A DNA stretch of 64,000 bases from GCF_054482595.1 NZ_CM137008.1, one strand, 5' to 3'. Shown: positions 25,991 through 30,571, counted from the first letter of the stretch. The notes: generated by a model from the letters alone, not told the origin. Translations and numbers: made by a program.

Positions 25991-27283
25991 TTACCTGTTT
26001 TCCCACAATCTCAGCATCGCTTTGTGTTCGTCTGTCAGCACAATCTGCGGGCGTCTGGCTCGAATATAGCTAATCGCTTCATTAACGGTTTTACAGTGTC
26101 CGTAACATAACAACCATGCCGCCACCACCAGCGCACCGCGCGATAATCCCAATGCACAATGGACCAGAACGCTGCCTTGCTCTTCGCGTAATGTTTCCAG
26201 CATCGCCACGGCCTGTCGGAGTTCCCTCTCTTCCGGAACCACCAGATCCAACATCGGTACACAGAAATAGAGTCGATCTTTTGTCTCTCGTCCTCGAGGG
26301 AATTCAAAGGTGACGTCCAGAACCGCATTCTGTGCCGGAATATGTCGTGGAAACGCCCCTAAATAAACACCAGCAGTCATTTTGCTCACCGGCTCCAGGC
26401 GACGACAAAACCAACGCATAGATAGCCACATCCCGATACGCCAGGGCAATGTCAGCCAGTAAACGGCGGGCGGGAGTTTCCCCTGACTATCTTTCCCTGT
26501 TGTTATCGCGCCAAGCCCACCGTACCCACGGCCAATAATGAGTAGCGATAATACTGGCCAACATAACCAGACTGACCACCATAACTGAACCATCATCATT
26601 AGCTCCATCAACACAATGCACGCGCACGCGCCTACGACATATGGCAGTGCTATTTTGATTCGACGTTGATCAGGTTTCTGATAATTCCAACGACGGTCGA
26701 CGGGTACCATCCAGTCAATCAACATACCTACCGCCAGCCCTGTGATGACATCAATAAAATGATGCTGCCAGGTTGTCAGCGTCGAAATGGCGATGAGTAA
26801 AAACCATCCGCCGCAGACTTTACGCCACTTCACAGCCAGATGCTGACGAAAGTGACGCCAAAGTAGCCAGCAGAGAATAATATGCAGCGAAGGAGACTGG
26901 TTATAGGGCAGATCAAACAGTTCAAGTTGCGAAAATAGCCATCCTGTCACCCCACTCACTTCAGGACGGATAAAGCTAAACTTCAGCGGGTAGAGAAAAA
27001 AACCGCAGCAGGTCATTACCGTTGCCAGAATAAGCCGGTGGACAAGTCGGCGCTGTTCGAATGTCGAGCTACAAACGAACAGCGAAAATCCATATAAAAG
27101 ATCCAGACTCCAGTAAGGAACAATAGTCCAGGGAAGAAAAGGGATCGCCGTTTCCCAACCGAATACCTGACTGGGGATATCATGGCTGTTAAGGTCCTGA
27201 ACCGCGGTGAACTGATTAAGAGATCCATAGGTGAAGAAGAAAAACGGGGACAGCAACAATAACCAGCCAGCGCCTTGTAGCAA
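25991..27283 (-). CDS. ynbD: YnbD membrane protein with C-terminal dual-specificity phosphatase domain; start uncertain (TTG at 27283 gives 430 aa; upstream GTG/ATG starts possible)
   Basis: Polytopic N-terminal region plus CX5R P-loop [10 protein letters not shown] near C-terminus; the longest ORF (27382) would overlap the ynbC 3' end. Confidence 0.65.
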
Positions 27284-27296
27284 TACGTTCCGACGT

Positions 27297-29054
27297 TCAG
27301 TTATCACGACGCACCGCCATCGAAACCGTAAAAATACCCCACTCATCAATCCGTTGTGTGCATTTATCAAATCCGGCATCACGCACGAGTGAATCCATCT
27401 CCCCTTGCGAACGCACGCGCATTACCCACGGTTTACCATCTTTATGACTGGTTAACACCCCGGCAATCAGCTCCAGTTGTGGGTGCCACGGCTGCCCGGT
27501 GTAGAGGAGAATGCCGCCCGGTTCGATGGCATTGGCAAGACCTGCGAGTGAGTTTTTTACCTGCTCATTTTCGGGAAAAAGCTCATACAGGCCAGAGACA
27601 ATCGCCAGCGTAGGCCGCGGAGTTAACGCGCTGAGTTCCTCTGGGTTAAACGCATCGCCCTGTTCAAAACGCACCCGCCCAGACATTCCCCGTTGAGCAA
27701 TCATCTCTTGCCCCTGTGCAACATTTAACTCGCTGTAATCACGTAACAAAATATCGCTTACGGCAGGCTCGTTTGCCAGCGCATCCAGTACATAGCGCCC
27801 ATGCCCTGCGGCAATGTCAACCACGCGGACGGCTAAACCTTTGGCGTGGAGATCGGCAACGGCTTGTTTAATCAGTATTTGTAAATGGGTTTTGCGCTGG
27901 CGAATACCGCGCCAGCCAACACTGTTCAGGTAGATTTTGTCGATTAAGCGCCCGAATGCGTTACTACCTTGCGGTTGATTTTGATAGACATAATCCAGCG
28001 AACTGCCTGAATCAAAGCCGGTGCTCATTCCGAGATGCAGGCCCGCAGAGTGCGCCCCGAACAATTTCATCGCTTTACGCATAAAGCGATACGCCAAATC
28101 AACCGGCGATAATGGCACGGGTCCACCTGAAAGGAGCCGCCAGCGATCCGCTGATGGTCCAGTGCGGTCTTCATGCTGATAATCAAATTTTTGTGATTTG
28201 TTAGCATATAAGCGACTAATAAAGCTTTGCATTTTTTCAAATGCCAGCGCCCTGTTCTCTTCACCCAACGTGTCGTGATAAAAGCCTGGCAGCAGATGCA
28301 GCTCTTTGAGAGGGCTACGTAAACGCTGATAAAAATCGATCTGCGGTTGGCGATGCACCACATAGTCATCGCCTGATATCAGAAGTTGCGTGGGGAGCGT
28401 AATCGCCGCCGCATCGCTAACAATACGTTCAGACGTTTTATAGAGATCGAGCAAGATATTGACGGCAATCGCCCGTGTGATCAGCGGATCATTATTGAAA
28501 CTCGCCACCCGTTGCCGATCGTGGGTCAAATAGCGTCCTTGCACATAGGAATTAATAAAAAACAGACCACGCAGACGATGCCATAACGCCAGCGCAGGAC
28601 GCGCCAGCGGCACATACAATTTAACCTTAAAGGCCGGAGAAGCCAGCAGCAGCCCGCGAATTGCAGGCGCATAATCATGAACCCATGTGGCAACCAGCAC
28701 TGCGCCGACGCTCTGCGCGATCACTACCACCTCTTCCAGCCCAACCTGGCTGTCGCTGGCAGCAAAACGGACAAATTCATCGACATCCCGCACTGAACGC
28801 GCAAGAGATGGGCTATAACCACGCGGCCCCGAAGTTTTTCCATGCCCTCGGGCATCCCATGCATAAAAAGCAGTATCTGGCATCGCCAGTTCATCAACGA
28901 GATGTTGTAGACGACCAGAATGTTCATGACCGCGATGAAATAAGACGATGACCTTTTTCGCCCCGGACTGTAAAGCGGGCCAGTGCCGATAAAACAACGC
29001 TGTATTATCACTGGTGGTAAAAAAATGTTCCCCAGGGATGCGTGAATTTTCCAT
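27297..29054 (-). CDS. ynbC: YnbC: N-terminal alpha/beta hydrolase fused to C-terminal SAM-methyltransferase-like domain
   Basis: 585-aa ORF; nucleophile-elbow-like AQSVG and MTase motif-I-like [11 protein letters not shown]. Confidence 0.85.
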
Positions 29055-29069
29055 TTTCTCTATTTTCCT

Positions 29070-29966
29070 TCAGTAACAGCAGTAGCGAATAAAATAAAAA
29101 AATACCGGAGCGGTGAAAATTAATGAGTCAATCCTGTCAAGGAGTCCGCCATGTCCTGGTAATAGTTTTCCGCTATCTTTAACACTAATATCTCGTTTGA
29201 TGGCTGACATCACTACATCGCCGCAAAAACCACTAATACCAATTAACAAACCCGCTAATAATGCCTGTAATGTATTTAGCGGTGTCAGCAACGGTCCAAT
29301 AATAAGTGACGCAATCATGGTGGTGATTACGCCCCCCACCAGACCTTCCAGCGTTTTTCCCGGGCTGACTTTGGGGACCACTTTTCTTCTGCCGCAGGAT
29401 TTCCCCCATAAATACTGTGCAATATCGTTTGACTCTGTTGTCGCCAAAAGAAATAACACCAGTAACGCCCCGCCCTGGGTATTTGTGGTTGGCAACATTA
29501 ATAACCAGGCGGCATGACTCAAGGCGAAAACGGTCATTATCCAGCCCCAAAAAATGGCGCTCACGGTATGCAGAAAACCGGAGGTATCACCTACTAAAAC
29601 TCGCCAGGTGGTTAATATCAGAAACCCAGCCAAAGGTATAAATAACAGAAACAGCTCAAAGCAATTAAAACCGATAAGCAAATAGTTAAGAGGAATAACC
29701 CAATATAACCAACGCGGAAAATGTACGGATATAAGCGTACAATATTCTTTCAATGCCAGAAAACTTATCAGCGCAAAAAACGTCAACGTCATCCAGCGTG
29801 GACCTGAAATCACCAGTGAAAAACAAATGACGATACCCCACCAGGTACGAATACGTAATGTAACTTCATCCTCTTTTCTCTCCGGTAACCGCCATACCCG
29901 AAAACGGTTTATCAGCGTTGCTAAAATTAACAACGCGAAAAGTGTTGCCAGAGATTTTTCCAGCAT
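29070..29966 (-). CDS. ynbB: YnbB, CdsA-like phosphatidate cytidylyltransferase family
   Basis: 298-aa membrane ORF with CDS signature SAIKRDISVKDSGKLLPGHGGLLDRIDSL. Confidence 0.85.
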   Translation of the reverse strand: MLEKSLATLFALLILATLINRFRVWRLPERKEDEVTLRIRTWWGIVICFSLVISGPRWMTLTFFALISFLALKEYCTLISVHFPRWLYWVIPLNYLLIGFNCFELFLLFIPLAGFLILTTWRVLVGDTSGFLHTVSAIFWGWIMTVFALSHAAWLLMLPTTNTQGGALLVLFLLATTESNDIAQYLWGKSCGRRKVVPKVSPGKTLEGLVGGVITTMIASLIIGPLLTPLNTLQALLAGLLIGISGFCGDVVMSAIKRDISVKDSGKLLPGHGGLLDRIDSLIFTAPVFFYFIRYCCY

Positions 29967-30571
29967 TATCTTTCAGCACTCATCAGGAGCACACTCCGAC
30001 AACGATTAATCGCAGTCCAGATAAGCAGAATTGAAGCAATGCCCCATAAAAGATTATTCCATTGCATCCACTGTGGATAAATGGCAACGGCCAGCCCCCA
30101 CAACCCAAATATTAACGCACGATCGCTTTTGCCGAATGGACCGGCATAACTGCGAATACCGTTAATCGTCTGCGCGAGTAAACCGCAAAACTCAGTCAAT
30201 ATGGTGAAAAATAACATGAGTATTACGAGTGATGCGTTACTTTCTGGTAAAAATAAAAACGGTAAATAGAGCGCAATATCGGAAATAACATCGCCAGTTT
30301 CATTCAAAATCGCCCCCAGACGTGTTTGCAGATTGCACTCACGCGCCAACATGCCATCCAGCGCATTGAGTGCCATACGGATAAAAAGCACGATGGGCAA
30401 TAGCAAAAAGAGGATGGGTTGTGCGACCAACATCAACAGCAATCCGGTAATAAGAGAAAGCGCCAGTGCAGCAAGAGTGATGTGATTCGCTGTAACATGG
30501 TGCTTATAAAGCCAAAACATCGTCGGCCTTAACAGCGACTGAAAGAGCGGTTTTATCTGGTAGAGCGTCAT
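29966..30571 (-). CDS. ynbA: YnbA, CDP-alcohol phosphatidyltransferase family
   Basis: Trimmed to MTLYQIKPLFQSLL... (201 aa); motif DGMLARECNLQTRLGAILNETGDVISD; ATGA overlap with ynbB start. Confidence 0.85.
   Translation of the reverse strand: MTLYQIKPLFQSLLRPTMFWLYKHHVTANHITLAALALSLITGLLLMLVAQPILFLLLPIVLFIRMALNALDGMLARECNLQTRLGAILNETGDVISDIALYLPFLFLPESNASLVILMLFFTILTEFCGLLAQTINGIRSYAGPFGKSDRALIFGLWGLAVAIYPQWMQWNNLLWGIASILLIWTAINRCRSVLLMSAER

Follow-up and report, generated by a model that had tools for sequence, protein, structure and literature searches.

Introduction

Bulk phospholipid synthesis by the cdsA–pgsA–pgpA/B/C pathway combines a cytidine diphosphate-diacylglycerol (CDP-DAG) synthase, a CDP-alcohol phosphatidyltransferase and a lipid-phosphate phosphatase, in that order. 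The phosphatidylinositol route (M. tuberculosis PgsA1, Renibacterium PIPS, Bacteroides) works in two steps: phosphatidylinositol phosphate (PIP) synthase uses a phosphorylated acceptor, and its product is then passed to a dedicated PIP phosphatase. Other systems of interest for comparison are PTPMT1, a mitochondrial phosphatidylglycerophosphate (PGP) phosphatase with a dual-specificity phosphatase (DSP) fold, the sphingomyelin synthases (SMS) and Aur1-type inositol phosphorylceramide (IPC) synthases, and the route of the glycolipid MPIase, that is, the CdsA/YnbB-dependent formation of N-acetylglucosamine-diphospho-diacylglycerol (GlcNAc-PP-DAG). The present study concerns the ynbABCD operon, located on the minus strand at positions 25991–30571 of a 64,000-nucleotide stretch of an Escherichia coli chromosome (GCF_054482595.1, NZ_CM137008.1), hereafter the window, from whose first letter all ynb coordinates are counted. 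E. coli has retained four genes of a cluster that comprises six in its full form, and it is proposed, with a probability of about 0.4, that the cluster provides a dedicated minor phospholipid derived from CDP-DAG, which would be made and dephosphorylated on the cytoplasmic face of the membrane and then handled by a periplasm-facing head-group transferase.

ynbABCD is a known, annotated and under-characterized operon; it is non-essential, activated by BglJ–RcsB and cold-responsive. Among the ynb genes, a biochemical role has been published for ynbB alone, in the MPIase route. The Nishiyama laboratory described YnbB, a paralogue of CdsA, as capable of CDP-DAG synthesis in vitro; alone, it does not complement the growth of ΔcdsA, whereas YnbB together with Tam41p can replace CdsA (PMC6362211, PMC7018664, PMC11413397). 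Overproduced YnbB restores or raises the level of MPIase but not that of bulk phospholipid (PMC6362211; PMC7018664), and an effect of ΔynbB on protein export emerges when Tam41p competes for phosphatidic acid (PA) (PMC6362211). According to a second-hand citation, ynbB is cold-induced along with cdsA (PMC11413397). The enterobacterial common antigen form ECA-PG was published as not requiring ynbB. The MPIase route differs from the ynb cluster in that YnbB acts in it alone, as an auxiliary of CdsA, with a contribution termed "marginal or auxiliary" by its authors (PMC6362211); ynbA is named 0 times in that paper, where ynbC and ynbD are also unmentioned, and the phylogenetic spread of the cluster is not that of an essential function. 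Nothing was found in the literature on a role of ynbA, ynbC or ynbD in MPIase synthesis. An earlier reading of the window, made from its sequence only, had stated that no product was assigned to the operon, which is outdated for YnbB (CDP-DAG synthase, MPIase) and still holds for YnbA, YnbC and YnbD in the literature found.

Gene organization of the ynb locus

The operon consists of four co-directional open reading frames (ORFs) that fill the span exactly, from the ynbD stop codon to the ynbA ATG, as the sequence-only reading had described, and correspond to the annotated E. coli genes ynbA–ynbD:

29966–30571, minus strand: ynbA, ATG start, 201 amino acids (aa)
29070–29966, minus strand: ynbB, ATG start, 298 aa
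27297–29054, minus strand: ynbC, 585 aa
25991–27307, minus strand: ynbD, 438 aa with the RefSeq GTG start (430 aa with the older TTG start at 27283)

A 4.8-kb query (25900–30700) was 100% identical to several complete E. coli chromosomes, in which it is annotated as azoR, ynbD, ynbC, ynbB and ynbA. The ynbA stop codon and the ynbB ATG have one base in common, so that the junction AGATAATGCTG reads TAATG, and not ATGA as stated earlier. The gap between ynbB and ynbC is 15 nt (29055–29069) and contains an AAGGA motif, and ynbC overlaps the GTG start of ynbD by 11 nt. A chance origin of these ORFs is ruled out because they are 201–585 codons long, 4275 of 5426 E. coli genomes conserve them, and their within-species dN/dS values are 0.12–0.30.

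Profile searches with hidden Markov models upheld the family assignments proposed from the sequence: Pfam matches were to CDP-OH_P_transf (YnbA), CTP_transf_1 (YnbB), hydrolase and methyltransferase families (YnbC) and DSPc (YnbD). No NCBIfam equivalog cut-off was passed by any of the four proteins.

The ynb cluster in Proteobacteria and its reduction in E. coli

The distribution of the cluster was surveyed in one genome per species with an alignment of 12 YnbC sequences as the query, which gave 80 loci from approximately 35 genera; these loci were then searched at the ORF level with the E. coli Ynb proteins. In view of antisense shadow ORFs in GC-rich genomes, a family from the locus-wide ORF clusters was used only if its orientation and position confirmed it. 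The 80 loci span Gamma-, Beta- and Alphaproteobacteria (Enterobacterales, Pseudomonas, Variovorax, Cupriavidus, Zoogloea, Accumulibacter, Neisseriaceae, Bradyrhizobium and Acetobacteraceae), and ynbA, ynbC and ynbD were adjacent and co-directional in nearly all of them. Two further genes recurred. The first encodes a PlsC/AGPAT-type (1-acylglycerol-3-phosphate acyltransferase) protein of approximately 213 aa with the motifs NHxSxxD and FPEGTRG, found in 64 loci from 27 genera, whose best NCBIfam models were the Aas-type acyl-ACP-phospholipid acyltransferase and the AGP acyltransferase. The second, located directly after ynbD in 66 of the 80 loci, encodes a membrane protein of approximately 130–150 aa with invariant Arg/Asp/Arg/Gly positions, for which Pfam and NCBIfam scans (of the protein of approximately 135 aa) returned no family. 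The gene order was ynbA–ynbB–acyltransferase–ynbC–ynbD–small membrane protein in Citrobacter, Hafnia and Pantoea, and ynbA–ynbC–ynbD–small membrane protein–acyltransferase–ynbB in Pseudomonas and Betaproteobacteria. Thus, the common ancestral form of the cluster is one of six genes: ynbA, ynbB, the PlsC-type acyltransferase, ynbC, ynbD and the membrane protein of approximately 135 aa.

YnbA and YnbC were also found fused in proteins of 807 and 927 aa on metagenomic contigs. In Morganellaceae, ynbA–ynbC–ynbD and the small membrane protein gene were kept with no ynbB nearby, which fits YnbB as a supply module for YnbA. No glycosyltransferase was found in any ynb cluster examined. In four distant loci (L003 and L091–L093), a YnbC-type fusion and a CTP_transf_1 gene were accompanied by a long PAP2_3 protein, a patatin phospholipase and one or two short-chain dehydrogenases, with an acetoacetate-decarboxylase-family gene added in L091; this variant architecture may be a pointer to the substrate class. 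Taken together, comparative genomics strengthens the view that the genes may form one functional lipid module. Of the self-contained lipid route suggested previously, the module idea is thus backed by the adjacency of the genes, the YnbA–YnbC fusions and the co-clustered acyltransferase, whereas E. coli is without two of the six genes. Separately, Citrobacter sp. Cu233 (L015) carried the cluster twice; the second copy was more divergent, with YnbC 66% identical, YnbA truncated (143 aa) and YnbD split, and is probably a decaying paralogue or horizontally acquired.

All six genes are present in Citrobacter sp. FP75 and in Salmonella, where they occupy the chromosomal position of the E. coli operon, between the flanks ydbH–ynbE–ydbL and azoR–hrpA. 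At this site, the acyltransferase gene lies between ynbB and ynbC, and the gene for a membrane protein of approximately 134 aa follows ynbD. The occurrence of the two genes was as follows:

Salmonella, Citrobacter: acyltransferase present, small membrane protein present
Klebsiella huaxiensis: acyltransferase absent, small membrane protein present
Cryptic Escherichia clade: acyltransferase absent, small membrane protein absent
E. coli: acyltransferase absent, small membrane protein absent

The positions of the extra genes and of the corresponding E. coli spacers are listed for comparison:

Locus L007: 9367–10008 and 13031–13432
Locus L095: 3626–4276 and 7302–7706
E. coli window: spacers 29055–29069 (ynbB–ynbC) and 25938–25990 (ynbD–azoR)

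A tblastn search of the E. coli window for the acyltransferase and the small membrane protein gave no remnant of either. Because the cryptic Escherichia clade has the same four-gene form, its stability reaches back beyond the diversification of E. coli, and the retention of the other genes in K. huaxiensis suggests that the acyltransferase is accessory. The E. coli pathway, being without the acyltransferase and the small membrane subunit, may run only partially.

Within the species, at least 80% of the region was held by 4275 of 5426 complete genomes. Disrupted operons contained IS2 in ynbB, IS30 near ynbC, IS903B replacing ynbB, or an internal deletion from the 3′ end of ynbA to the 5′ end of ynbC (examples: NZ_AP022540.1, NZ_AP027865.1, NZ_JALDNN010000001.1, NZ_CP121356.1). 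Approximately 630 genomes had no match at all, some others matched at the azoR edge only, and five matches were located on plasmids. The dN/dS values of 0.12–0.30 per gene, obtained for the window allele against two other E. coli alleles, indicate selection that is purifying and probably more relaxed than would be expected of typical core genes.

YnbA, a CDP-alcohol transferase-family protein, and the CdsA paralogue YnbB

YnbA is a polytopic membrane protein and a divergent member of the CDP-alcohol phosphatidyltransferase family, matching Pfam PF01066 (CDP-OH_P_transf) at residues 27–175 (E-value = 3.1e-8). Its motif, N69-x2-D72-G-x2-A-R-x8-G86-x3-N90-x3-D94, is without two of the four signature Asp residues. 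N69, N90 and the neighboring E91 were invariant in the family alignment. The Asn/Asn motif is best regarded as a conserved variant and not as decay, because 80 of 84 cluster-linked homologues share it, as do 114 of 120 database relatives. It appears to mark an uncharacterized subfamily of CDP-alcohol transferases with an altered metal site.

Profile comparisons place YnbA nearer to the PIP synthases than to PgsA. The best NCBIfam models were archaetidylinositol-phosphate synthase (1.5e-19) and PIP synthase (9e-11), and not PgsA, both being under their cut-offs (NF040950, 70.6 bits vs. 180; NF045883, 41.8 vs. 170). Against solved CDP-alcohol transferases, the YnbA-family profile gave E-values of 1e-11 for mycobacterial PIP synthases, 1e-6 for AF2299, 3e-5 for CPT1, 0.01 for PSS and 0.31 for PgsA, and it aligned over its full length with the PIP synthase PgsA1 of M. 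tuberculosis (E-value = 1e-11). In the latter enzyme (PMC6506517), Mg-1 is ligated by D68 and D89, the second of which also bridges to Mg-2; D93 serves as the catalytic base, and the phosphate group of inositol phosphate is bound by R94. PIP synthases are thus the closest solved or curated relatives of YnbA, which differs from them in the Asn residues at the first and third Asp positions, in a Val for Arg94 and in scores far under the family cut-offs. No inositol-phosphate synthase was present among the genes conserved within 10 kb of any ynb locus.

YnbB matched Pfam PF01148 (CTP_transf_1) with an E-value of 7.8e-70. The CdsA family signature, previously called near-perfect, is matched exactly by SAIKRDISVKDSGKLLPGHGGLLDRID at residues 254–280, as found by a regular-expression search with the pattern S-x-[LIVMF]-K-R-x4-K-D-x-[GSA]-x2-[LIF]-[PGS]-x-H-G-G-[LIVMF]-x-D-[RK]-[LIVMFT]-D, which we take to be PROSITE PS01315. 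YnbB is not a full-length orthologue of CdsA: the CdsA equivalog NF008635 aligned only with its C-terminal half (residues 160–291), scoring 105 bits where the cut-off is 385, and its failure to complement ΔcdsA has been published. In one E. coli record, a protein of 889 aa with CTP_transf_1, Hydrolase_4 and Methyltransf_20 domains was encountered, which would be a YnbB–YnbC read-through fusion over the 15-nt spacer.

The likeness to the cdsA–pgsA–pgp pathway, with which the sequence-only reading had drawn a parallel, therefore holds loosely. The order of the chemistry is the same, and YnbB has the catalytic C-terminal half and the signature of CdsA. However, YnbB is no substitute for CdsA and cannot sustain bulk phospholipid synthesis, YnbA is closer to PIP synthases (E-value = 0.31 with PgsA), YnbD does not complement the loss of pgpABC, and the ynb cluster adds a lipase–methyltransferase fusion and an SMS-like domain. 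For the pathway as a whole, the pairing of PIP synthase with a phosphatase is the nearest analogy.

Fusion proteins YnbC and YnbD

YnbC combines matches to Hydrolase_4 (E-value = 5e-67) and Methyltransf_20 (PF12147; E-value = 4e-152), and YnbD joins a membrane domain to a Cys-based phosphatase. The domains are arranged as follows:

28230–29054, minus strand: N-terminal half of YnbC (approximately residues 1–275), monoacylglycerol-lipase-like alpha/beta hydrolase with the triad Ser115/Asp230/His260
27297–28232, minus strand: C-terminal half of YnbC (approximately residues 275–585), class I S-adenosylmethionine (SAM)-dependent methyltransferase of the uncharacterized Methyltransf_20 family
26498–27307, minus strand: N-terminal membrane domain of YnbD (approximately residues 1–270), eight predicted transmembrane helices, PAP2_3 type, with a fold closest to SMS/Aur1
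25991–26395, minus strand: C-terminal domain of YnbD (approximately residues 305–438), dual-specificity Cys-based phosphatase with Asp354, Cys384 and Arg390, predicted to be cytoplasmic

The N-terminal half of YnbC has the fold with a cap and the Ser-Asp-His triad of the monoacylglycerol lipase (MGL) type, and SAM motifs I–III (D413-x-A-x-G417, D439 and D467-A468) were conserved in at least 34 of 38 sequences. YnbC-like hydrolase–methyltransferase fusions were represented by 6356 cluster representatives at E ≤ 1e-3 and by 407 at E ≤ 1e-30. A search of the literature on PF12147/Methyltransf_20 yielded nothing. A transposon phenotype of ynbC (polyphosphate accumulation and LtrA delocalization) was set aside as functional evidence, being strain-dependent and missing in the Keio deletions. 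It should also be mentioned that ynbC of strain HCP5S3_I2 (L086) contains an in-frame stop near its 5′ end relative to the window allele, with a shorter ynbC given in RefSeq (locus 1698–3440), and that, among the full-length YnbC homologues examined, the most distant one (33% identity; L004/L005, 8001–9779) is not beside ynbA, ynbB or ynbD but comes after a ketoacyl synthase, a MaoC dehydratase and a short-chain dehydrogenase, i.e., in a fatty-acid-type context.

In YnbD, the match to Pfam DSPc was strong (E-value = 2e-26), whereas those to PAP2_3 and PAP2 were weak (5e-4 and 0.012). The membrane protein with a CX5R phosphatase loop recognized previously is borne out by the P-loop HCALGLSR at residues 383–390, and the PAP2-type N-terminal domain is additional to that description. 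In the AlphaFold2 (AF2) model (mean confidence score pLDDT 93.3), eight long membrane helices are followed by the DSP domain, which has the HCX5R P-loop, the upstream general-acid Asp and the DSP fold. The motifs of PAP2 lipid-phosphate phosphatases are not reproduced: C1 (K-x6-R-P) is absent, C2 reads PSLH142 and C3 reads TWQH182-H-F-I-D186. The residues H142, H182, D186, D354, C384 and R390 were invariant. The topology was derived from the AF2 helices and the positive-inside rule; according to the Lys/Arg pattern of the loops, the N-terminus, the 201–216 loop and the DSP domain would be cytoplasmic, with the His142/His182/Asp186 site at the periplasmic face.

YnbD has been recognized as the fourth E. 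coli PAP2 protein, without a function being ascribed to it (PMC7413402). PTPMT1 was among the top fold matches of its DSP domain; YnbD differs from it in being covalently joined to the eight-helix membrane domain and in failing to rescue PGP-phosphatase deficiency. The fold of the N-terminal domain of YnbD is SMSr/Aur1-like, at a sequence identity of only 10–13%; the domain has a His/His/Asp site and no C1 motif, and YnbD differs from SMS and the Aur1 IPC synthases by the fused phosphatase. To our knowledge, ceramide synthesis is not known in E. coli. The modeled fold suggests that head-group transferases resembling sphingomyelin synthase may exist in bacteria, and for the small membrane protein encoded downstream of ynbD, a parallel with Kei1 can be offered as speculation by analogy.

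Flanking regions and regulatory signals

Two elements flank the operon in the window:

30572–30740, minus strand: ydbD–ynbA intergenic region, which holds the ynbA promoter
25952–25981, minus strand: stem-loop, a perfect 11-bp inverted repeat ATGTGGACTG...CAGTCCACAT within the 53-nt spacer of the convergent ynbD and azoR genes

Activation of the ynbA promoter by BglJ–RcsB, abolished by mutation of the site, is described in PMC3950696, and a transcriptome study lists ynbA, ynbC and ynbD jointly among the BglJ/RcsB regulons. At 30656–30663, approximately 88 nt upstream of the ynbA ATG, TATTCTGA was found as a regular-expression match to the RcsB-side core wwTTCykA of the BglJ–RcsB motif; as a BglJ–RcsB site, this match is suggestive only. 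Silencing of ynbA by H-NS was considered and is not claimed, since the BglJ–RcsB paper reports no H-NS test for ynbA; the low GC content (43–45%) is noted. A consensus scan of 25300–31000 returned fewer promoters and terminators than shuffled sequences (3 vs. 7.7 and 5 vs. 6.8, respectively), and no internal signal is claimed. The hairpin at 25952–25981, which was not called by the consensus terminator scan, had a predicted RNA folding energy of −24.2 kcal/mol (z = −3.7 vs. shuffles) and no U-tract or T-tract on either strand; it is a candidate 3′-end or terminator structure.

A step in GC content was observed inside the operon, with 45.2% in ynbA and 43.4% in ynbB vs. 51.6% in ynbC and 50.0% in ynbD, the window mean being 49.4%; it could be linked to silencing or to a mosaic origin. 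The upstream neighbor ydbD (30741–33053, minus strand; 770 aa, annotated as a DUF2773-domain bactofilin) had a GC content of 43.0%, similar to the AT-rich ynbA and ynbB. It is missing at the syntenic loci of Salmonella, Citrobacter and Klebsiella, where ydbL or paa genes adjoin ynbA.

Discussion

The new elements contributed by the present analysis are the near-universal adjacency of ynbA, ynbC and ynbD, the six-gene ancestral form, its reduction in E. coli, the share of approximately 21% of complete E. coli genomes without an intact operon, and the Asn/Asn variant of YnbA with its closeness to PIP synthases. The following sequence of reactions may be envisaged for the proposed CDP-DAG-derived phospholipid. 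The acyltransferase (in the full cluster) and YnbB would supply a dedicated CDP-DAG pool from PA and CTP, the reaction of YnbB being one demonstrated in the literature. The PIP-synthase-like YnbA, with its putatively altered metal site, would then move the phosphatidyl group onto an acceptor, probably a phosphorylated one, and the cytoplasmic Cys-phosphatase domain of YnbD would strip off the terminal phosphate in the way that PTPMT1 dephosphorylates PGP. YnbC may deacylate and/or methylate the lipid or a by-product. Finally, the lipid would flip, and the periplasm-facing SMS/Aur1-like domain of YnbD would transfer or cleave the phospho-head group. The invariant residues of YnbD, the triad and SAM motifs of YnbC and the conserved YnbA variant are consistent with catalytic competence of the encoded proteins.

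Several observations weigh against this proposal. The canonical signature D-x2-D-G-x2-A-R-x8-G-x3-D-x3-D is departed from in YnbA, in which the first and third Asp are Asn, and the residue after D94 is Val at the position of PgsA1 Arg94, so that the basic residue binding inositol phosphate is not kept; without the two Mg-1 ligands (equivalents of D68 and D89) and the Arg94 equivalent, both the activity and the acceptor of YnbA are uncertain. The methyltransferase domain of YnbC gave only generic matches to solved methyltransferases, which leave its substrate unconstrained. In the comparison with PTPMT1, protein dual-specificity phosphatases scored equally well, and lipid and protein substrates are thus not distinguished; the opposite-face topology of YnbD is a prediction; and overexpressed YnbD complemented neither undecaprenyl pyrophosphate (C55-PP)-phosphatase nor PGP-phosphatase mutants (PMC7413402). 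Deletion of ynbB had no growth, phospholipid or MPIase phenotype (PMC6362211; PMC7018664). In E. coli, both the acyltransferase and the small membrane protein are missing, and approximately 21% of the genomes are without an intact operon. No paper was found that assigns a product to YnbA, YnbC or YnbD, and no lipid has been tied to them.

A broader version of the proposal, advanced here tentatively and with more doubt than confidence, is that of a two-compartment Proteobacterial pathway, in which the acyltransferase, YnbB, YnbA, the Cys-phosphatase domain of YnbD and YnbC would build the minor phospholipid on the cytoplasmic leaflet, and the flipped lipid would serve as the donor for an SMS-like YnbD transferase decorating an envelope acceptor, possibly with the protein of approximately 135 aa as a Kei1-like subunit; the E. 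coli version would then be truncated.

It is also conceivable, although unlikely, that the operon serves MPIase synthesis specifically: GlcNAc-PP-DAG would be made by YnbB, perhaps with YnbA acting on GlcNAc-1-phosphate, and the other genes would process intermediates, mainly in the cold. This would accord with the increase or restoration of MPIase by overproduced YnbB and the export effect of ΔynbB under Tam41p competition for PA (PMC6362211), as well as with the reported low-temperature induction of ynbB together with cdsA; a phosphate nucleophile might, in addition, suit the less acidic YnbA site with Asn for two Asp. However, the MPIase level is the same in ΔynbB, the contribution being "marginal or auxiliary", and the synthesis of compound I is assigned to CdsA/YnbB and not to YnbA (PMC6362211). 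The clusters contain no glycosyltransferase, some lineages have ynbA–ynbC–ynbD without ynbB, and conservation of the cluster extends to Pseudomonas, Variovorax and Cupriavidus, beyond the Enterobacterales, the only group with the enterobacterial common antigen. That the operon is missing or broken in approximately 21% of E. coli would be odd for the pathway of an essential lipid.

The state of the E. coli genes could be explained differently if ynbABCD were, in Escherichia, a cryptic and decaying remnant whose ancestral product has been lost and which persists under weak selection or only for YnbB as a back-up CDP-DAG synthase. This explanation is regarded as improbable. In its favor, two of the six conserved genes are gone without traces, although Salmonella and Citrobacter hold them at the syntenic site; insertions of IS2, IS30 and IS903, internal deletions and complete absence occur (4275 of 5426 genomes with at least 80% of the region); the dN/dS of 0.12–0.30 looks above the expectation for E. 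coli core genes; expression hangs on the normally silent activator BglJ; and single mutants are without a phenotype. Yet the four genes are all intact in 79% of the genomes, each of them has a dN/dS well under 1, and all catalytic residues are still present. Furthermore, the acyltransferase is also absent in K. huaxiensis with the rest kept, and thus looks accessory, and the cryptic Escherichia clade holds the same four-gene form.

Lipid turnover or remodeling, in which the lipases would deacylate phospholipids, the acyltransferase would re-acylate them and YnbB would recycle PA and diacylglycerol, has a small probability. The N-terminal domain of YnbC is clearly MGL-like, the clustered acyltransferase is nearest to lysophospholipid/Aas-type and AGPAT enzymes, patatin phospholipases occur in the distant variants, and SMS-type reactions release diacylglycerol. 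Such a cycle, however, leaves the conserved CDP-alcohol transferase, Cys-phosphatase and methyltransferase unexplained, and the YnbA–YnbC fusions tie the lipase and the methyltransferase to a head-group-forming enzyme. That YnbD is a membrane-anchored signaling protein phosphatase with a coincidental neighborhood is highly improbable, given its fusion to a lipid-enzyme (PAP2_3) domain, the strictly conserved order with lipid enzymes in approximately 35 genera and the fact that no kinase or regulator is conserved nearby.

Phospholipid synthesis in E. coli is usually held to be fully mapped; the ynb operon nevertheless has paralogues of three of its core steps together with two unusual fusion enzymes. 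The distribution of ynbB suggests that YnbB primarily supplies YnbA, and not an essential glycolipid, which bears on the MPIase model. The intact cluster found from Salmonella to Pseudomonas, Variovorax and Bradyrhizobium, rather than the K-12 remnant, becomes the object for lipidomics.

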